From a virus (Duplodnaviria; Caudoviricetes), in IMG/VR virus record IMGVR_UViG_3300031963_000578, positions 1-32,747 of that record: a stretch of DNA of 32,747 nt; one strand, 5' to 3'. The position numbers and the translations under genes were made by a program. Position 1 is the first letter of the stretch, and each line of letters opens with the position of its first letter. Positions 11,028-29,658 of this stretch are shown here, one piece after another. The notes below the pieces were generated by a model. That model saw only the letters and a program-made list of their open reading frames with translations. It made no database searches and was not told the origin of the DNA.

Positions 11028-11174
11028 ATGATGAACAAGAAACCTGCTGTAAAAAAAGCTGCTGGTAAGCCTATGGGTTACGCTAAAGGCGGTATGACTT
11101 TCAAACCTTGTGCTGGTTGTCCTAACGCTGCAAAGTGTAAGGCGATGGGCAAGTGCATGAAAAAAGCAAAATAA
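11028..11174 (+). CDS. 48-aa basic 4-Cys protein (absent from the ORF track)
   Basis: Hand translation: MMNKKPAVKKAAGKPMGYAKGGMTFKPCAGCPNAAKCKAMGKCMKKAK. AAGGGG RBS. Fills most of the gap between 11026 and 11200. Confidence 0.75.
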   Translation: MMNKKPAVKKAAGKPMGYAKGGMTFKPCAGCPNAAKCKAMGKCMKKAK

Positions 11175-12015: not shown

Positions 12016-12429
12016 ATGTTTCCACTAACCGCATTAGTAGATGTCGGCATGAAAGTGCTGGATAAATTTATTCCAGACCCCGAAGCTAAAGCAAAAGCTC
12101 AGCAAGAACTTCTTAAGATGCAACAAGAAGGCAGACTGGCTGAACTCAATGCTGACAATATTGAAGCCCAAGAACTTACTAAGCGCCATGAAGCAGACAT
12201 GGCTAGTGATAGTTGGCTGTCTAAGAATATAAGACCCATGACCCTTGTGTTTATCTTAATTGTCTATTCCACTTTTGCAATGATGTCTGCTTGGGATATT
12301 GAAGTAAACAACAATTATGTTGAATTGCTTGGGCAGTGGGGTATGCTAATTATGTCATTCTATTTTGGCGGTCGTACGCTAGAGAAGATTATCGACATGA
12401 AGGGAAAGAAAAATGCAACTGACAAATAA
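12016..12429 (+). CDS. Holin (3TM / GTA-holin-like)
   Basis: 137 aa. DKFIPDPEAKAKAQ.EL, SWL.KNIRP and YFGGRT.EK motifs. Directly upstream of the endolysin. Confidence 0.75.
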   Translation: MFPLTALVDVGMKVLDKFIPDPEAKAKAQQELLKMQQEGRLAELNADNIEAQELTKRHEADMASDSWLSKNIRPMTLVFILIVYSTFAMMSAWDIEVNNNYVELLGQWGMLIMSFYFGGRTLEKIIDMKGKKNATDK

Positions 12430-12877
12430 CTTTTCCCTTGTCGAGATGGTTAAATCTGAGACAGCGTTGCGTCACAACATGGACAATACGCCCGGGGAGG
12501 CTGAAATTGAAAACCTTAAAAAACTATGTGAGCAAATTCTTCAGCCTGTTCGGGAACACTACGGCAAAGGAGTTAAAGTCAACTCCGGTTTCCGACATCC
12601 CGAAGTCAACGCCAAAGTCGGTGGCTCCAAAACCAGCGACCACTGCAAAGGCCAAGCGGCAGACATCGAAATCCCCGGTGTCCCCAACGCGGAACTCGCG
12701 GAGTACATCGCAAAAAACTTCTCGTTCACGCAAGTCATCTTAGAGTTTTACACCCAAGGTATTCCTGATTCTGGTTGGGTGCATGTATCGTATGACCCTG
12801 CGAATTTAAAGAAACAAACACTAACTGCTGTCAAACAAGACGGCAAGACTGTGTATTTACCCGGATTGGTTGCCTAA
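12413..12877 (+). CDS. Endolysin, peptidase M15A family
   Basis: 154 aa. L..NFSL.E, SGFR...N..VGG...S.H..G.AAD and WVHVS (H-x6-D...H zinc ligands). Confidence 0.9.
   Translation: MQLTNNFSLVEMVKSETALRHNMDNTPGEAEIENLKKLCEQILQPVREHYGKGVKVNSGFRHPEVNAKVGGSKTSDHCKGQAADIEIPGVPNAELAEYIAKNFSFTQVILEFYTQGIPDSGWVHVSYDPANLKKQTLTAVKQDGKTVYLPGLVA
12507..12743 (+). CDS. Candidate nested (+1 frame) 78-aa amphipathic cationic peptide inside the endolysin
   Basis: GGAGG at 12496-12500, TTG at 12507. Endolysin third positions are skewed to C within the overlap. Confidence 0.55.
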   Translation: MKTLKNYVSKFFSLFGNTTAKELKSTPVSDIPKSTPKSVAPKPATTAKAKRQTSKSPVSPTRNSRSTSQKTSRSRKSS

Positions 12878-21153: not shown

Positions 21154-24100
21154 ATGGCGACTAAAGCCACACAGTCATTTGAAAACCCACTGTACACTAG
21201 CTCTGGCGGGTCACTCGCCAGTGACATGAGTGGCTATACTTTTTTAAATCCTGCGGTTAGTACAGGGTCGGACGCTCTCCAGCAAGGGTTGGCTGACATT
21301 GCCGCAATGGGTGCAAGGGCGCAACAAATAACGCAGTTTGAACTGCCGCAGATTAAACGCCCACCTGCTATTCAGTACAGTCCATCACAGAAAAAACTTG
21401 CTGTACAGGGCGTTACCTTCGATGAAGATGACTCCGAGATGACCCTGCGTGCGGAGGCTTTGCTAGACCAGCCCCCCGTTGGAACACTAAAGGGTGGCGA
21501 CTGGGTAACACTTACACCGCAAGCATACGGGCAGATTACCAGTGGTATCCGTAACCCTAGTCTTGGTCGTCTTATGTCCAAGAACTTTGGTATTGGCGTT
21601 GACCAGTTGCAGTTACTTGCTGGTCGTGGGCTTCAGCTTGCTGGCGCAGAACAAACAGGTCAGGCTATCGTTGACCAGCAGATGGATGACATACGTAAGA
21701 ACCTTCCGTTCCGTCGTGAGTTCTCTGAGATTGATTCTTCTAAAGGTGCTATCGAGTGGCTGGCTGCAACTGTTGCCCAGCAAGGGCCGAACATCCTTGA
21801 GTCTATTGGTGTTGCTGCCGCAGGTTTCTTTGCAGGTGGCGCAGCAGGTGGCCCTTTGGGTGCGGCAGGTGGTGCACTGGCTGGCTTGGCAGGTAAGACT
21901 GCCTTTAAACAATCTGTACTTGCGGCTCTAAAGAAACAAGCAGCAGGCGAAGCATTAGATGTAGCCGAAACTAAACTGCTTAAAGAAGCGGCTGGTATTG
22001 CAGGTGCAACAATTCTTAGTGTGGGTCAGAACTACGCCACTGGTGCGGCTGATATTTATGGTGAGTTCCGTGAACAAGGGTCGGGTGCTGATGATACCAA
22101 CGCTCGTCTTGCTGCTTTGTCAGGCGCAGTTCCTTATGCTGTTCTCGAATCTCTCCCTGAGTTCTTACTAGCTTCCCGTCTATTTGGGCGTGGTGGTATA
22201 TCTGCCAGAGGTGGTTCAACTAACCTACAAGATATTCAGGGTAAAACCTTTCTTGGGACACAAGCCCTTCGTGGTGGGGAACTACTTAAGCGTGGAGCAA
22301 AAGGTGCGGCAGTCGGTGGTACGGCTGAAGGCTTAACTGAACTAGGACAAGAGAGTCTGCTTATTGGTATGACAGGTCAGGACTTTACTGATGCTGATGT
22401 ACAGAACCGACTCCTTGAATCCTTTGCTGCTGGCTTTGGTGTTGGCGGTACGATTGGTGCTGGTGCTAACCTACGACGCGGCCCTATCGGCAAACAACCT
22501 ACCAACTTGTTGAACCCCGGTCAGACTACTGACCCACCTCCTAGCGACTCTCGTGAAGTAACCCCCGTAGGCGGGCCAACCCCCTCAGGTGGTATGGGCG
22601 CACGCCCTGACTTCGTAGCTGGTGCTGCTGGTGTTCGTGCATCTACGCCGGGCGACCGCATCTACACTGGCCCAGTTGAGCCTAATCAGTTTGGTGGTGC
22701 GCAAGGCGTGCTTGACCTCGGTGGTATCCCTGTGGCTGAAGCCAAGGCTCGCAGCATGCAAGGCAATGTGCAACCACAACGGGTATGGGATGTAACCACT
22801 CAATCGTGGCGTGAAGTTAGCCCACAAAGTGCAGATGAACAAGTAGCCGCTAATTTCCAACAGAAACGTCAGGAACGTATTCAATTAGGGCAATACATCA
22901 ATACCCTAAAACAACAACTTGCTAATCCTAATCTGCCCCCACAAGAACGGGCTAATTTAGAACGGCAATTAGCGCAAGCCACTGAAGCGATTCGTACTAC
23001 GACTGATGTTATAGATACCACTCAGTTTGCTAGAGAGCAAGCTGGGCAACCGCCTATTCGGCAAGAATTACCAACAGTAGACCCTAATCAGTTGGCGTTG
23101 CAGTTTGCGCCTCCTGCCCCTAGTGGCGTAGGCTTTACTGACCAAGCTGCACCTATCGTAAACCCTGCTATGCAGCAGGCAATGAACTTGGCACAAAGCC
23201 GTGAAGCTCAGGTACAGGCGCAAGCCGCAGCCGCCGCACAGCGTGAGGCTGACCTTAATAAATTGCAGGCACGTGGGCAAGCCCAACGTCAACTGGATAT
23301 TGCTCAGCAAGCTATGGACGCTGCCCGGGCACAACAGCAACAGACACAGCAACAACTTCCCACGAAACCGTTGCCTATACGGCAGCCTCAGCAGTTGGAA
23401 TTGTTTAGCCGTAGAGAAGCTCCGCGCCCATCCCGTGCTGAAGGTCTACGTCGTGGTGTAGGTACGCAACTTCCTGAGCCAACCACTCCCGTGTTGCCTG
23501 TCCAAGACTTGCGCCGTAGTCCTCAAGTGCCTTTGTTTACTCAACAAGGCGCTCCATCTATGGCCGCTCTCAGAAGTGCAGGGACACAGCAACAAGTTGT
23601 ACCGACAGTGCAGCAAGGCGCTACCCAGATTGCTCCAACAGGTGCACCTGTTACTGCGGTTACTTCTGAAGCAGCTAAGGGTGTGGCACTTAAGAAAGAA
23701 AAGACTGGCACGATTACCTTTGAAGATGGCTCTATATATACAGGGCAATTGAAGAAGGGCGAGCCTAATGGTCAAGGTACTTTGATTTATTCGGACACAT
23801 CCACATACACGGGGCAGTTCAAGAACGGCAAACCACAAGGTAAAGGTCGTTTTGAAGATGCAGATGGTACTGTATTCGATGGTCAATTTGAAGATGGAGA
23901 TTTCATACAACCTGAGGTAACAGAAGATGCCACTCAAAAAGGGAAGCAGCAACAAGGTCGTCAGTCAAAACGTAAGCAAGATAATGCGGGAGTACAAGGC
24001 GGGGGGCAAACTGGGCAACAGCCCACGACCCAAGAGCAAGGCGGCGGCACTGAAACAGGCGGTGGCGGCAAGTCTCTCAAACGCGGGAAGAAGCAAGAAG

Positions 24101-27100
24101 TAACTCCTGACGAGACACCCCCACCCCCACCTCCTAAGGGGGGTAAGGCTCTAAAGAAAGCCCCAGCAAAAAAGACTGAGGCTAAGGCTGAAGCCGCACC
24201 CAAAGCAGCCAAGTTGCAGAAAGGCCCGAGTGGTTTAGCTGCAATGGTTGGTCAGCTTATGGGTACTACGGCTCAACCTACTGTGGTTGAGAGCCAGCCT
24301 AAACGTGGGCCGAATGAAGCCAGTGCTGAAACAGTCGCAGCCAATGAAGAACTCGACATGGCTATCGAGACTGCTGAAACAACTAAGAACGCAGCAGCTT
24401 ATGCCGAGGCTTTGTATGACATTGTGTCTGCTTATGTAACCTCAGCAGACCGTACGTATCTACGTAAGACATCCACAAAGTTCTTGACAGATGAAGGTGG
24501 TGTACCGAAGGGCGACTATGTAGCTGCTCTGCGTGAGATTGCGTTGGATGAAGAATCCATCTCTCCAAAGTCACGCCTGTATGGTTTGTTGGCTGATGCT
24601 GGTTTGTTAAACGATGTGAACGTACTGAAGAACGTACGTGTCCCCGGCGCAAAAACTACACAAGAAGCAGTGGTAGGAGAAACCATTGGGGCAAACTCTG
24701 AGATTACTCCTGAAGAAAGCCTTGCTAACTTCATTGATTCCAATCCACAATGGCCTAACCGCAAGCAGTTGGTTGACAAACTCAAACAACTCTACGGCAA
24801 GATTGACGATGATAATTTTCTTGTCGGTAAACGTGGTCGCATCAAAGACTTCTTTGACACTAATGGGAATCCCTTAGTAACTCAACCTGCTGGTACGTCT
24901 TACTTTATCCCTAATACTGTGGCTGAAGAAAAGACTACCAAGTCTGATTTCGTAGCTAAGCATGAAACCGCCCGTAAAGAATTGCGGGACTTGGAAGATA
25001 CTGAAGACCAGACCACACTGGATGACCTTCAGTTTGACCCATTCTATGACCGCAAGCCAAACAGTGATGATGACTGGCGTGCTTTCCGTTCTAATGGTAA
25101 ACCCTTAACGCCAATGAAAGTTGGCCCACTGCGTTTGTTTGCGGCTCGGGTTATCTCTAAGTATGCTCGTAAGCCACGGGTATCTGTGTTTGCGAATATC
25201 CAAGACATGAAGCGTAGCAACCCTGCCCTGTTTGAAGCAGCAGCAAAGGCTCGTAAAGATGGTGACATCGAGGCGGTCAATGCCGCAGGTATGGCTTGGG
25301 GTGACAACGTGGTTCTGTTTGCAGACCTCATCCACTCTGAAGAACACGCCCGCTTTATCATTGCCCATGAAACTCTTGGGCACGTAGGTTTCCGTGGATT
25401 GTTTAGCAATCAAGCACTTAACAAGATTCTCCAGTTCGTTGCTGATGCTGACCCTCATCTCACAAATGAGGCGATTGTCTACGCAAACGGCAAAGGAATC
25501 CCATTCCTCGAAGCAGTCGAGGAGGTGTTGGCAGACCGTGCTGCTGCCATTGACAATAACACAATCCTTAGATTTTGGAACTGGTTAAAAGACCAACTGA
25601 ATAAACTTGGCTTGTCGTTCAACGATGACGCAGCCCGCTACCTTATCAGCCTATCACGCAAGTACGTGCGTCAGGGCGTTGGGCGTAGTGAAGTCAACAC
25701 CTCTGGTCTCTATAAAGAAATCAACGAGGCACTGGCTACTGAGCAGTCCGACATTGAAGTATTACGCTTTGCCCAGTCTGCCGCCCAAGGTTCTGCTAAC
25801 TTTGCACAGAACTTTGTAAACCGCAACTTTGCCGTTTATGGAAACCTTGAGCGTTCCATCCGTGACATTGTGGATGCTTCACAGAAGTCTGCCGAAATGC
25901 GCAAGCAAGGCAAGGGTGTCCTTGCCAACGTACGTAACGTGGTTCAAAAGGTTCTTGATGGTATTCAAACCCAAGACAACATGGCTCGTAAGTCTAAGGG
26001 CTACTTCAAAATCTTTAGGTTGCTGCAAGACCAAGCGGCTCGTCAAACTGAACTTAAGACCCAGTATGCTGAGATAACCAATATTGCCCATGAAGCTAAG
26101 TTCCTTGGGTTTGGTGAGGGTTTAACGTCTGAGCAAAGTGTCCGTGCCGGTGAGTTGATGGCATACGCTACGCTGTTTAAGATGAACCAATTGTCGGATA
26201 ACGCTATTGCCAAGATGGACAATATCGTGTTCTATGACCCGAACAATCTTGAGCCTATACCTAAGATAAACGTAGACGGATTTAACCAGTTAAAACAGGT
26301 TGGTCGTATGACTCCTGAGGAATTCCGTAGCGGCTTTAAAGTTCAGCAGGGTACTGAAGAACGCCCAATGACTGAGGAATATAAAGCGGAACTGGCTGCG
26401 CAACGGGACAAAGAGCTTGCCATTATGGAAGCAGGTAGGAATCGGGAACTTGCCCGCCTGCAAAAGAAACTGGCTGCGGCTACTAATGAGGAAGCCAAGC
26501 TAGAGTTTGAGCTACGCATTAAGCGTCTTGAGAGTAGATACGCCAGTAATGTAGAAAGTACCAAGCGGTACTACACCAAGCAGATGAACGATAAGACCTA
26601 TGAGGCTCCTCGTCTAACGGATTCTCTTGACTGGTTTAAAGATGTTGATGGTACTGTAATCGAGAATGACGATGGTACTGTGACCTACACAGGTACAAGT
26701 ATTGAGTATCAGGTGTACTTGCAGTTCCACGAGGCTATCTCTAAATCGGCTGCGGATGTATTGATTGGTAAGTATCTTGGTGCTATCCACGAGCAAGCCC
26801 GTGCCATTACCTCTGGTGTTGGGGCATCGTTTAACCAGTCGCTAACTGCACAGGAAACTAAGTTCATTGAGGACATAGTTGAGCAGTACGACCGCATGCG
26901 GCTAAAGGATTCAGGCTACAAGAACAACCGTTTTGAGATGAGCGAGTCTGCCCAAGAGGATGCTAACGAGTGGCTACGTATGAAGTTTGCCCGTGCGTTC
27001 TATACCGACCTTGCCCTGACTGACCTAGCCAAAATGGTCGAAGGCTATACCCCCGCAGAGGTTGATACGATTGTCCGTGGTATGCGCAAGAAACTTCGTA

Positions 27101-29658
27101 CCAAGGTAGACCCTGACATAGATGACATTCGGGATAGTTCTATTTGGGCATTAGAGCATCGCATTGAAGAACGGGCAATGTTTGCCGCCTCTATTAATGA
27201 TGACCAGTTCTACGCCAAACGAACCATTGCTGGTTCGTACGTTCCCCTCATCCGTGAAGGCGATTGGCAAATTCGTATTCAAGCCTACAAGACTGTCAAC
27301 GGACAAGAAGTTCCTATTAAGTTACGCCAAGGGCAACAAGACTCTTTGTTCTACGGCAAGACCGCTAACCAAAAAGATGCCCAAGAAGTTCAAGACGAAC
27401 TGGACAACCTCTTTTCAGGTGAGCATGACATGCGTGATGCCGATGGCAATATGCAGACAGTTAAGTTGCGAGCCATTGCATCGGTTGCAGAACAGACTCC
27501 CGCCCTTGTGGACATCCTCCACTACGACGAGGTAATGTATTCGCTCAGTCGTTTGGGTATCAACATTACCCCTGAGCAACGGACAACCTTGGTTCAGAAA
27601 CTTACTGCACAGAACACTCGTGCCCGTGCAAACCTGAAGCGTTCGGGCGTACCGGGCTGGGATAAAGATGTTGTCAAGAGTGCGTCGGCTTACCTAGAAC
27701 AGCAGGCATATACCGCAGCTAATAAAGAGTTCCGCCATCAGTACGATGAAGTGCTTGATAACCCGTTCAACTGGCAAGGTGACCCTACCCGTTTAGAAGA
27801 ACTGCGGGTTAAATGGGAAAGCAGTACTGGCGAGGCTAAAGAGATTGCCGCTCGGGAGTATTTCCAAGAGAAGTTCTACTACGATAATGCCGTTGAAGTT
27901 ATTGATGGTAAGCGGGTGGAGCGTGGCAACTGGTACAAAGAACGTGCCAAGTCTTTGCTTGACTGGAAAGAATCCACGGGTGACATCGTTCATGCTGACG
28001 ACATTTGGACAAACAACGAATGGTCTGTTGCGGCTCGTACTTGGGCGGCTATTGCCCAACTTGGTGGCTCTATTGCTACTGGTGTCACACAGATGCTTTC
28101 GTTGCCAACCAACTCATGGGCGTACCTCTCAGCCTTTAATCCTAAGAATGGATTTGGCTTAGGGTTAGGCGCAGGTCGTGCCGCCACATTGTTATTTGAC
28201 TATGGTCGCAAAGCAGGTAGCTTCCGTTACGCCAATCTAGACTACATCAAAGGACAGATTAAAGAACTCCAAGATAGTGGTGAAGATAGGAACAAGGATG
28301 GGCTGACGTTTGCCGAACTGAACTTCCTCCAAACCATGACGGAAGAACAACGCCTTGATGCCGCACAATTTAACGCTTTGACTGGTACTAGCCGTGGTCG
28401 TAAGATTACTGGCAATCCAACCGCACAAAAAGTTATTCAGGTATGGATGCTTCCATTCAGTTATTCCGAACAATTTAACCGCCGCACCACACTCCTAGCA
28501 GCATATCGTGGTGAGTATGACCGTCAACGTGCTGCTGGCCTAGCCCACAATGAGGCTGACCTTGCCGCCCGTGCTGCGGCATCTCGTGCCGTTGATGCTA
28601 CCCAAGGGGATTACGCTCAGTACAACCGCCCTGCTTTCTTCCGTGGTGGACTCCAGTCGTTCATCTATATGTACAAGCAGTACCCTATCTTGATGGTTCA
28701 GTTGCTAAAGAACATGAACTATGAAGGTCGTATCATCATGCTCGGGTCGTTGCTCTTGTTATCCGGAGTACGGGGCATACCGGGTTCTGACGACATCTTG
28801 GACATTGTTGATGGTATTGCTCAGCGCCTTGGCTTGAAGGTTGGCTCGATTGAAAAAGAGTTTGCTCGTCTGACCCGTAGCGTATTCGGTGATGAACTAG
28901 CGGCAGAGATTAACCCAATCATCATGCGTGGTTTGCTTGACCACTTCACTGGTCTTTCATTCTCGAATCGCTTAGGTCTTGGGGACATCATCCCCGGAAC
29001 TGGCTTGCTTAAACCATCGGCTACCAAGCAGGAGATTCTGCGTGAGGTGGTAAATATTGCAGGTGCACCAACGTCTTTCTTGGCAGGTGCGTTTGAGTTT
29101 ACGTTTAACACATTGCCTGCGGTAGCCACAGGGCGTAAAGGACTAAGTTCCTTAGCGACTGACTCTCCCTTTACGGCTATTAAGAACTTGGGTACTGCGT
29201 TTAAGTTTTACGACACAGGTGCGATTGTCGACACCAAGGGATATGTTGTAGCGCAGAACGCCACCACTTGGGAAATACTTGGTAAGGCACTAGGTTGGTA
29301 TCCATCCCGTGCTCAGGCACAGATGGACTGGTTGATGGCTGACTCCCAAGAACAAGCATACATGTCTATGATTAAGACTGAAGCTACCCGCCAAGCAGTT
29401 GCCGCTCGATTGTCAGGCGATGTGGATGCTGAGAAGGATGTCAAGGAATACATCAAGTCATGGAACGAAAGCACCAAAGGGACACGCCTAGAGATTCGCA
29501 ACTTTGAGAAAGGTTTAAATCAAGCCTTCCGTGAAGCCAAGAAACCACTAGCGTTACGTGCCCTCAAGTCCTCCGCTAAAGGTGGCAGAGCAGAAGCTAA
29601 GGAGTTGCTACGCATTTACGGCGTAGACGAGGAAACCCTTTCGGGCATCCCCGACTAA
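21154..29658 (+). CDS. Giant polyvalent internal virion/ejection protein
   Basis: 2834 aa. Gly/Ala hydrophobic N-domain, Gln/Pro linker, MORN repeats, HETLGH zincin motif, helical C-domain with TQGDY...NRP..F motif. Confidence 0.8.
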   Translation: MATKATQSFENPLYTSSGGSLASDMSGYTFLNPAVSTGSDALQQGLADIAAMGARAQQITQFELPQIKRPPAIQYSPSQKKLAVQGVTFDEDDSEMTLRAEALLDQPPVGTLKGGDWVTLTPQAYGQITSGIRNPSLGRLMSKNFGIGVDQLQLLAGRGLQLAGAEQTGQAIVDQQMDDIRKNLPFRREFSEIDSSKGAIEWLAATVAQQGPNILESIGVAAAGFFAGGAAGGPLGAAGGALAGLAGKTAFKQSVLAALKKQAAGEALDVAETKLLKEAAGIAGATILSVGQNYATGAADIYGEFREQGSGADDTNARLAALSGAVPYAVLESLPEFLLASRLFGRGGISARGGSTNLQDIQGKTFLGTQALRGGELLKRGAKGAAVGGTAEGLTELGQESLLIGMTGQDFTDADVQNRLLESFAAGFGVGGTIGAGANLRRGPIGKQPTNLLNPGQTTDPPPSDSREVTPVGGPTPSGGMGARPDFVAGAAGVRASTPGDRIYTGPVEPNQFGGAQGVLDLGGIPVAEAKARSMQGNVQPQRVWDVTTQSWREVSPQSADEQVAANFQQKRQERIQLGQYINTLKQQLANPNLPPQERANLERQLAQATEAIRTTTDVIDTTQFAREQAGQPPIRQELPTVDPNQLALQFAPPAPSGVGFTDQAAPIVNPAMQQAMNLAQSREAQVQAQAAAAAQREADLNKLQARGQAQRQLDIAQQAMDAARAQQQQTQQQLPTKPLPIRQPQQLELFSRREAPRPSRAEGLRRGVGTQLPEPTTPVLPVQDLRRSPQVPLFTQQGAPSMAALRSAGTQQQVVPTVQQGATQIAPTGAPVTAVTSEAAKGVALKKEKTGTITFEDGSIYTGQLKKGEPNGQGTLIYSDTSTYTGQFKNGKPQGKGRFEDADGTVFDGQFEDGDFIQPEVTEDATQKGKQQQGRQSKRKQDNAGVQGGGQTGQQPTTQEQGGGTETGGGGKSLKRGKKQEVTPDETPPPPPPKGGKALKKAPAKKTEAKAEAAPKAAKLQKGPSGLAAMVGQLMGTTAQPTVVESQPKRGPNEASAETVAANEELDMAIETAETTKNAAAYAEALYDIVSAYVTSADRTYLRKTSTKFLTDEGGVPKGDYVAALREIALDEESISPKSRLYGLLADAGLLNDVNVLKNVRVPGAKTTQEAVVGETIGANSEITPEESLANFIDSNPQWPNRKQLVDKLKQLYGKIDDDNFLVGKRGRIKDFFDTNGNPLVTQPAGTSYFIPNTVAEEKTTKSDFVAKHETARKELRDLEDTEDQTTLDDLQFDPFYDRKPNSDDDWRAFRSNGKPLTPMKVGPLRLFAARVISKYARKPRVSVFANIQDMKRSNPALFEAAAKARKDGDIEAVNAAGMAWGDNVVLFADLIHSEEHARFIIAHETLGHVGFRGLFSNQALNKILQFVADADPHLTNEAIVYANGKGIPFLEAVEEVLADRAAAIDNNTILRFWNWLKDQLNKLGLSFNDDAARYLISLSRKYVRQGVGRSEVNTSGLYKEINEALATEQSDIEVLRFAQSAAQGSANFAQNFVNRNFAVYGNLERSIRDIVDASQKSAEMRKQGKGVLANVRNVVQKVLDGIQTQDNMARKSKGYFKIFRLLQDQAARQTELKTQYAEITNIAHEAKFLGFGEGLTSEQSVRAGELMAYATLFKMNQLSDNAIAKMDNIVFYDPNNLEPIPKINVDGFNQLKQVGRMTPEEFRSGFKVQQGTEERPMTEEYKAELAAQRDKELAIMEAGRNRELARLQKKLAAATNEEAKLEFELRIKRLESRYASNVESTKRYYTKQMNDKTYEAPRLTDSLDWFKDVDGTVIENDDGTVTYTGTSIEYQVYLQFHEAISKSAADVLIGKYLGAIHEQARAITSGVGASFNQSLTAQETKFIEDIVEQYDRMRLKDSGYKNNRFEMSESAQEDANEWLRMKFARAFYTDLALTDLAKMVEGYTPAEVDTIVRGMRKKLRTKVDPDIDDIRDSSIWALEHRIEERAMFAASINDDQFYAKRTIAGSYVPLIREGDWQIRIQAYKTVNGQEVPIKLRQGQQDSLFYGKTANQKDAQEVQDELDNLFSGEHDMRDADGNMQTVKLRAIASVAEQTPALVDILHYDEVMYSLSRLGINITPEQRTTLVQKLTAQNTRARANLKRSGVPGWDKDVVKSASAYLEQQAYTAANKEFRHQYDEVLDNPFNWQGDPTRLEELRVKWESSTGEAKEIAAREYFQEKFYYDNAVEVIDGKRVERGNWYKERAKSLLDWKESTGDIVHADDIWTNNEWSVAARTWAAIAQLGGSIATGVTQMLSLPTNSWAYLSAFNPKNGFGLGLGAGRAATLLFDYGRKAGSFRYANLDYIKGQIKELQDSGEDRNKDGLTFAELNFLQTMTEEQRLDAAQFNALTGTSRGRKITGNPTAQKVIQVWMLPFSYSEQFNRRTTLLAAYRGEYDRQRAAGLAHNEADLAARAAASRAVDATQGDYAQYNRPAFFRGGLQSFIYMYKQYPILMVQLLKNMNYEGRIIMLGSLLLLSGVRGIPGSDDILDIVDGIAQRLGLKVGSIEKEFARLTRSVFGDELAAEINPIIMRGLLDHFTGLSFSNRLGLGDIIPGTGLLKPSATKQEILREVVNIAGAPTSFLAGAFEFTFNTLPAVATGRKGLSSLATDSPFTAIKNLGTAFKFYDTGAIVDTKGYVVAQNATTWEILGKALGWYPSRAQAQMDWLMADSQEQAYMSMIKTEATRQAVAARLSGDVDAEKDVKEYIKSWNESTKGTRLEIRNFEKGLNQAFREAKKPLALRALKSSAKGGRAEAKELLRIYGVDEETLSGIPD
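23707..23906 (+). repeat. MORN-type repeats (about 3) within the giant protein
   Basis: YTGQLKKGEPNGQGTLIYSDTST / YTGQFKNGKPQGKGRFEDADGTV / FDGQFEDG, 23-aa period. Confidence 0.85.
23927..24103 (+). CDS. Nested (+1 frame) 58-aa basic protein, MPLKKG/DUF6496-like
   Basis: GAGGT at 23914-23918, ATG at 23927, TAA at 24101-24103. MPLKKGSSNKVVSQNVSKIMREYKAGGKLGNSPRPKSKAAALKQAVAASLSNAGRSKK. Confidence 0.8.
   Translation: MPLKKGSSNKVVSQNVSKIMREYKAGGKLGNSPRPKSKAAALKQAVAASLSNAGRSKK

Follow-up and report, generated by a model that had tools for sequence, protein, structure and literature searches.

Phage genomes contain small genes overprinted in the +1 frame of larger ones, such as phiX174 E within D and T4 gene 30.3' within 30.3, and the nested open reading frame (ORF) described here resembles them in this. 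The E protein of phiX174 has a transmembrane helix and inhibits MraY, and neither E nor 30.3' lies in an endolysin gene. In mycobacteriophage Ms6, the protein embedded in lysA is named Lysin241. Phage phiKT encodes, between its endolysin and its holin, a 56-aa cationic peptide (gp28) that complements lambda Rz/Rz1 (10.1101/515445), and in another study 91 of 677 genomes were without spanins (PMC6139136). For the question of how phages of Gram-negative hosts get through the outer membrane when they have no spanin, the ORF studied here provides a candidate family, invisible to gene callers. Comparison of many homologous sequences gives good support to the existence of an unannotated family of overprinted genes inside a phage endolysin. 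Our literature search, with subscription journals and supplements outside its scope, found no published out-of-frame gene inside a phage endolysin.

We analysed a 32.7-kb fragment of a tailed phage (32,747 nucleotides in all, the only contig of its record, hereafter the window), which carries capsid, tail and internal-virion genes. The closest GenBank matches of its major capsid protein are those of four Rhizobium phages (52% identity). The nested ORF is also present in DSL-LC04, a relative with a complete genome whose predicted host is Pseudomonas (PMC10611076), so that a Gram-negative host is likely for the window phage. The features of interest are collected in Table 1. The endolysin reaches 72 bits with the Peptidase_M15_3 model (cut-off 23.2) and adjoins the holin gene, as expected for the M15A type. 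A hairpin is predicted at 12387-12451 (z -2.5), where the purine run upstream of the endolysin pairs with early endolysin codons; across 10 homologues, a hairpin over the endolysin start was inconsistent. A search for an internal promoter on the + strand between 10500 and 13500 found none.

Table 1. Features of the lysis cassette and of the second nesting site (window positions unless stated).
Feature	Position	Strand	Basis
Holin-family gene (GTA_holin_3TM), overlaps endolysin start	12016..12429	+	PF11351 E 1.8e-11; phrog_3427 holin
M15A-type peptidase endolysin, 154 aa (host gene of the nested ORF)	12413..12877	+	Pfam PF08291 E 4.5e-20; phrog_894 endolysin E 1e-45; PDB 1lbu match E 1e-5
Shine-Dalgarno (SD) of nested gene, GGGGAGG over endolysin codons Gly28-Glu29-Ala30	12494..12500	+	GGAGG 12496-12500
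Putative gene in the +1 frame, opening with TTG; 78 aa here, 63-105 aa in homologues	12507..12743	+	SD, open frame, synonymous-site constraint
N-terminal predicted amphipathic helix, residues ~1-18; face M1, L4, Y7, V8, F11, F12, L14, F15	12507..12560	+	AlphaFold helix; T3-rich host codons 32-48; synonymous constraint
Hydrophilic basic Ser/Thr/Pro/Ala/Lys/Arg-rich tail, predicted disordered, variable length	12561..12740	+	Composition vs expectation; AlphaFold coil
Second +1 nested ORF, 58 aa, basic	23927-24103 (shadow frame 23921-24103)	+	Inside 2834-aa gene 21154-29658; phrog_2423 E 1e-7
Giant-gene nesting slot	window 23927-24103; L291 9212-9349	+ (window)	Nested basic ORFs

The signals proposed in an earlier, sequence-only reading of this DNA were all exact in the window copy: GGAGG (12496-12500), a 6-nt spacer (CTGAAA), TTG (12507-12509), 78 codons and TAG (12741-12743), and so was its count of 13 Lys, 5 Arg and two acidic residues (one Asp, one Glu). 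It had also remarked on the third positions of the endolysin, and we recovered the same figures: codons 49-109 (12557-12739) end in C in 35/61 cases and in T in 5/61, as against 8/43 and 16/43 past the nested stop. This C-over-T bias is the highest of 7,914 61-codon windows taken from 31 plus-strand genes, with a C minus T of 30 where the best value outside the endolysin is 14. The frame is likewise unlike other +1 shadows, as had been claimed, since a hydrophobic fraction below 0.3 is found in only 2 of 47 such frames of at least 45 codons, the other being 23921-24103.

As a null model we used 50,000 synonymous resamplings of the endolysin with the window's own codon usage. A frame open to codon 110 was obtained with P = 0.0065, and SD, start and open frame jointly with P = 2e-4; the count of C-ending codons has a z of 7.2. 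In the 327 simulations with the frame open, the tail contained 27 +/- 3 hydrophobic residues (minimum 18) as opposed to the 5 observed. The predicted anti-SD pairing of the nested start, computed with an anti-SD motif, is -13.1 kcal/mol, versus -5.3 at the endolysin's own start, and is also stronger than at the holin and capsid starts. A longer version from TTG 12438 (101 aa) was rejected, as this start has no strong SD and its frame is interrupted by +1 stops at codons 9-13 in many homologues. In RNA runs the shares were 0.05-0.07, and assembled contigs of three RNA libraries cover parts of the ORF; strand, level and translation are not readable from these.

Five scans, two GenBank regions and the window yielded 290 stretches, corresponding to 170 distinct coding sequences spanning codons 22-140. 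The sequence-only reading had proposed to look among homologues for a conserved SD and start and a depletion of +1 stops, frequent stops being the outcome that would speak against it. With an SD word set fixed after inspection of the data, the +1 frame is open for at least 63 codons in 70/70 homologues with SD and TTG, none of which has an early stop, and in 10/100 of those without. When 11 sequences found by the peptide query only are removed, the figures are 62/62 and 10/97. The stops of the 70 carriers occupy five positions, giving frames of 63, 71, 76, 78 or 105 codons, the longest in 19/70. One of these 105-aa forms is in DSL-LC04 (OR003939), where it was omitted from the annotation; annotated genomes such as this one miss genes of this sort. 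In all carriers, identity to the window's endolysin is 76% (rounded) or higher, and in more distant relatives the frame is broken; some non-carrier endolysins reach 90% identity. Of 22 helix-type lineages, 20 have GGG as codon 28 and 20 have GAG as codon 29; in 56 non-carriers, GGG does not figure among the six codons most used at position 28.

The note had also suggested that synonymous variation should be suppressed over the overlap, and it is. In the lineage figures that follow, sequences were thinned to below 90% nucleotide identity, and since shared ancestry remains these figures are descriptive and not independent trials. Among 23 helix-type lineages, the pairwise synonymous difference is 0.23 over codons 28-48, 0.37 over codons 49-94 and 0.50-0.57 outside the overlap, so that the strongest constraint falls on the SD and helix rather than on the tail. 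Codons 111-136 give 0.20 for the 8 long forms and 0.56 for the 15 short ones; the 63 non-carrier lineages are flat (0.55-0.61) throughout. Codon bias follows the same boundaries. Among the 59 sequences collected first, the 9 with a stop at 137 had a C/(C+T) of 0.94 over codons 111-136 and the 5 with a stop at 110 one of 0.28, and C3 over these codons is 0.96 in 8 stop-137 lineages versus 0.62 in 15 shorter ones. C-for-T bias and synonymous constraint thus end at each lineage's own stop. Codons 32-48, under the helix, are T-rich in carriers (C/(C+T) of 0.06-0.27) and flat in non-carriers, so the bias reverses between the T-rich helix part and the C-rich tail part. Stop avoidance does not by itself explain the C bias, which persists in codons unable to generate a +1 stop. 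A recombined segment from a high-GC donor, which the note had named as an explanation that would undo its reading, is not indicated either: A, not G, rises at the third position of Lys/Glu/Gln codons (G 0.17 in carriers vs 0.60 in non-carriers). G-ending Gly/Ala/Pro/Thr codons, in which NCG gives a +1 Arg, amount to 0.30 in carriers and 0.09 in non-carriers.

Initiation is therefore conserved together with the open frame, and synonymous constraint is confined to the overlap, as in an overprinted gene. At the level of sequence, these comparisons demonstrate an SD, a start, an open frame and selection on the +1 product, which strongly support the second nested gene that had been placed on the endolysin, and the +1 frame at 12507-12743 is very probably a real overprinted gene.

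The product had been described as an amphipathic cationic helix followed by a tail. The predicted N-terminal helix stands: AlphaFold gives a helix at residues 2-22 and then coil, with a pLDDT of about 76 over residues 1-10 in what is a low-confidence model (mean 62.5). Charge and hydrophobic moment, however, are not unusual, as in the window copy both lie within the null of the +1 frame (net charge +16 vs 14.2 +/- 1.7, P = 0.24; moment, P = 0.33). What is unusual is the complete filling of the eight hydrophobic-face positions, seen in about 3% of the null. Since the helix class was defined by its own pattern, helix statistics are partly circular; at two sites outside the class definition, carriers still differ from non-carriers, with CCT at codon 45 in 22/22 versus 31/56 and AGA or AGG at codon 47 in 17/22 versus 3/56. 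AGA is present at codon 37 in 13/22 carriers. Acidic residues at positions 6 and 16 (Asp6 and Glu16, via rare AGA codons) look favoured in many lineages. Such favoured acidic residues are unlike a classic cationic antimicrobial peptide.

For the tail, we derived expectations from the codon usage of each locus. In the 22 helix-type lineages, 125 hydrophobic residues were observed where 506 were expected, together with 768 Ser/Thr/Pro/Ala (365 expected), 365 Lys plus Arg (266 expected, a 1.37-fold excess, compared to 0.91 in non-carriers) and no stops (63 expected). The 56 non-carriers conform to expectation more closely (observed/expected: hydrophobic 973/959, Lys/Arg 372/409, stops 79/96), and their acidic count is similarly low, so that this last trait is not specific to carriers. 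Selection on the tail thus acts against hydrophobic residues and for Ser/Thr/Ala/Lys/Arg. Net charge ranges from +7 to +27 across helix-type lineages. The window's product contains no Cys and no hydrophobic stretch and was not picked by lipobox scans, which sets it apart from o-spanins and u-spanins.

The helix pattern is matched in 49/70 carriers and degraded in 21/70, where the tail bias is milder. In one sub-lineage (L033, L034, L037, L048, L058, L068 and relatives) the SD, the TTG and a 63-codon frame are kept, and the Phe-Phe face and the Lys/Arg enrichment are lost; this may be decay or altered function. A clade of 11 sequences nested among carriers has lost SD and helix, with early stops in 4. 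We infer a single origin by overprinting, on a poorly resolved tree (154 columns, 6 state changes). Helix-type carriers are followed by 11 downstream gene clusters, one or two of which are probably spurious ORFs. The holins that precede carriers differ visibly in length and sequence, with at least three kinds (137, 146 and 168 aa). Because the nested gene moves with the endolysin through these 11 downstream clusters, a generic host target would be favoured over a phage-specific partner. Endolysins about 80% identical were also found in four low-GC contigs (L039, L042, L051, L080) whose neighbouring genes are T4-like by eye; the nested ORF is absent from these copies. Such contexts suggest that the endolysin family moves between distant phage types.

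Spanin-like genes were sought in the 120 of 170 loci with enough flanking sequence, with lipobox scans and then with profiles of two lipoprotein families, one of which was contaminated by two members of the other, leaving the any-hit count unaffected. Both families had been detected by the lipobox scans near non-carrier endolysins, and one of them lies within an upstream gene whose product has a hydrophobic segment at its N-terminus, an Rz/Rz1-like architecture. I-spanin-like genes lie directly upstream of the endolysin in 31 loci, all non-carriers; Pfam gave them no name, and they are assigned from architecture. A Cys-rich family of small lipoproteins, with a lipobox and then an RFRY/RYRY motif, occurs at L008 1615-1800 and about 20 other non-carrier loci, some 1 kb upstream of the endolysin and often beside a separate Rz/Rz1-like pair; it has no Pfam match. 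Spanin-like lipoprotein genes were found near 0/47 carriers, 1/7 open frames without SD and 30/66 non-carriers, the remaining 36/66 of which had neither lipoprotein nor nested gene. The spanin absence is real and the contrast is confounded by phylogeny, as the positive loci belong mostly to one clade and leave 3 independent pairs (sign test p = 1). No such lipoprotein was found in the window fragment or in eight carrier records with a completeness of 81-100%; since the lipobox scanner missed 3/3 lipoproteins that HMMs found in whole records, this absence is weak evidence. Among near-complete non-carrier records, 3/6 had a lipoprotein and 3/6 had neither gene. In the 11-sequence clade devoid of SD and helix, no gained lipoprotein was detected. 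As for the proposal of a spanin substitute nested in the endolysin, the nested gene stands and the substitute role is plausible only, given that the spanin contrast is phylogenetic and that the helix covers about 20 of 78 residues.

The endolysin is not the only gene of these phages with a small basic ORF in its +1 frame. The 58-aa ORF of Table 1 is the only other hydrophilic +1 frame of the window, and three related records contain stand-alone homologues of it. The relative G001 carries a different basic ORF at this position, which falls in a low-complexity linker of the giant protein; that ORF is 45 aa long and opens with a similar SD-ATG, as if the slot were exchangeable. The giant protein itself has a MORN repeat and a C-terminal phrog_11358 region and is otherwise unannotated. 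Small ORFs rich in Lys/Gly/Ala/Met occur, several per record, in 14 of 15 records (G001-G015). The window's own ORF of this kind, at 11031-11174 (47 aa), has four Cys and no Pfam or PHROG match. The all-frame scan behind the count of 14, with criteria modelled on the nested endolysin peptide, recovered that peptide's ORF from the window and from 7/7 helix-type records, and did not pick it in the degraded-helix record G012. Because these phages nest small basic genes readily, location alone is no proof of a role in lysis.

The reading that we place first, though at somewhat less than an even chance, is that the nested product is a membrane-binding accessory of lysis in phages with no detectable spanin. 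The gene would have arisen by overprinting in one endolysin lineage and would be translated from the late holin-endolysin message, at a rate above that of the endolysin if the stronger predicted SD pairing is a guide. The helix would insert its Leu/Phe/Trp face into the membrane and the polycationic tail would bind anionic lipids or LPS. This would weaken the envelope, in the way suggested for phiKT gp28, and the outer membrane would give way once the wall is cut by the endolysin. Such a role would be accessory, not essential, since the gene is lost or decayed in sub-lineages. In favour of it are the succession of helix and coil, the hydrophobic face kept at sites that do not define the class, the Lys/Arg enrichment, the position in a lysis cassette, the 0/47 carriers with a nearby spanin-like lipoprotein and the phiKT gp28 precedent. 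Against it are the charge and moment of the window copy, not above the null, the restriction of the helix to about 20 of 78 residues, the 21/70 degraded helices, the phylogenetic nature of the spanin contrast, the 36/66 non-carriers with neither gene and the 11-sequence loss clade. We rank this membrane role ahead of DNA binding, of a protein-binding regulator and, last, of there being no gene.

DNA binding, which the sequence-only reading had mentioned as an alternative, gained weight from the many small basic genes of these phages and their nesting in other genes, and we still consider it unlikely. The product would then be a small basic late protein that binds or neutralises DNA, in the virion core or the cytoplasm, with a helix that docks or oligomerises and an incidental endolysin site. 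Small basic ORFs with an SD are present in 14/15 records, carriers and non-carriers, although some may be shadows; the ORF at 23927-24103, replaced by a different one in a relative, indicates that nesting need not reflect the function of the host gene; and selection acts on a long hydrophilic Lys/Arg/Ser/Thr tail of freely varying length. However, it is the SD and helix and not the tail that are most constrained (0.23 vs 0.37), none of the listed small basic ORFs shares the helix sequence, the searches given below found no stand-alone homologue, and the gene accompanies the endolysin in phages whose downstream virion genes differ. Less probable again is a helix that binds one specific protein, be it the endolysin, the holin or a membrane or division protein of the host; the product would then regulate the timing of lysis or inhibit the host, and its tail would serve to keep it soluble. 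Specific helix residues, including Asp6 and Glu16 through rare AGA codons, the inseparability of nested and endolysin genes and a possible resemblance of the helix to the membrane-targeting helices of MinD, FtsA and MreB would agree with it, whereas the holins of at least three lengths before carriers argue against a holin-specific partner, and non-carrier endolysins up to 90% identical to the window's also count against it. That there is no gene, the pattern resulting instead from recombination of a C-rich tract, from an RNA element or from codon bias in the endolysin, seems to us very improbable. Charge and amphipathic moment are indeed largely forced by the frame, any ATT-G yields a TTG (P = 0.59), and no database homologue of the peptide was found: a search of a protein database with a 20-sequence alignment gave no stand-alone relative among 2,435 candidates at E <= 0.01, PHROGs and Pfam gave weak compositional matches below cut-off, the ESM Atlas no usable named match (best 0.81) and GenBank phages DSL-LC04 only. 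But the bias extends to codons unable to make a +1 stop and ceases at each lineage's stop, its sign flips between helix and tail, A instead of G rises in Lys/Glu/Gln codons, the 63 non-carrier lineages are flat, and the start region is folded less stably than its shuffles (z +1.3).

A bolder extension of the membrane role, which we consider less likely than not, is that one 465-base locus encodes a wall-cutting enzyme and a de novo overprinted outer-membrane disruptor of new architecture (membrane-inserting helix plus disordered polycation). Two steps of lysis would then share a module that is mobile between unrelated aquatic phages, in lineages where small basic genes are routinely lodged in a +1 frame. 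Whatever its function, the family offers a natural series for de novo gene birth, with one start, five stop positions, decay and loss; selection on the nested gene can be read in the silent sites of the endolysin, and tracts of C-over-T bias at third positions can serve to find further nested genes. Compared with the other small basic proteins of these phages (phrog_2423; a DUF6496 match is weak and below cut-off), the product is similarly small, Lys-rich, late-region and +1 nestable, but no sequence similarity was detected, and stand-alone homologues were found for the others only.

The product is like phiKT gp28 (Holt et al., 10.1101/515445) in being small, cationic and helix-forming, in a holin-endolysin cassette where no lipoprotein or spanin was detected. 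It differs in that gp28 is a separate gene of 56 aa, +7 and described as predominantly helical, while the nested product is out of frame in the endolysin, has 63-105 aa, a long hydrophilic tail and a predicted helix at its N-terminus only. In the disruptin screen of that report the cut-off was below 80 aa with a net charge of at least +4, which includes the window copy (78 aa, +16) and excludes by size the 105-aa form of 19/70 homologues. Disruptins are also expected to be predominantly alpha-helical and amphipathic, and here the low-confidence model has a helix at residues 2-22 only. Because it is not predominantly helical and has no lipoprotein signal, we file the product neither as a disruptin nor as a spanin; at most, it would work like phiKT gp28. 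As lambda Rz1 in Rz (Kongari et al., PMC6139136), it occupies the +1 frame of a lysis gene, has a start of its own and is rich in disorder-promoting residues, but Rz1 is an outer-membrane lipoprotein encoded in an i-spanin gene and our ORF lies in an endolysin, with no signal peptide or lipobox. Finally, as in lysA of mycobacteriophage Ms6 (PMC3111421), a second gene resides inside an endolysin gene; that of Ms6 is in frame and yields a shorter endolysin, whereas the one described here is out of frame and would encode an unrelated product.
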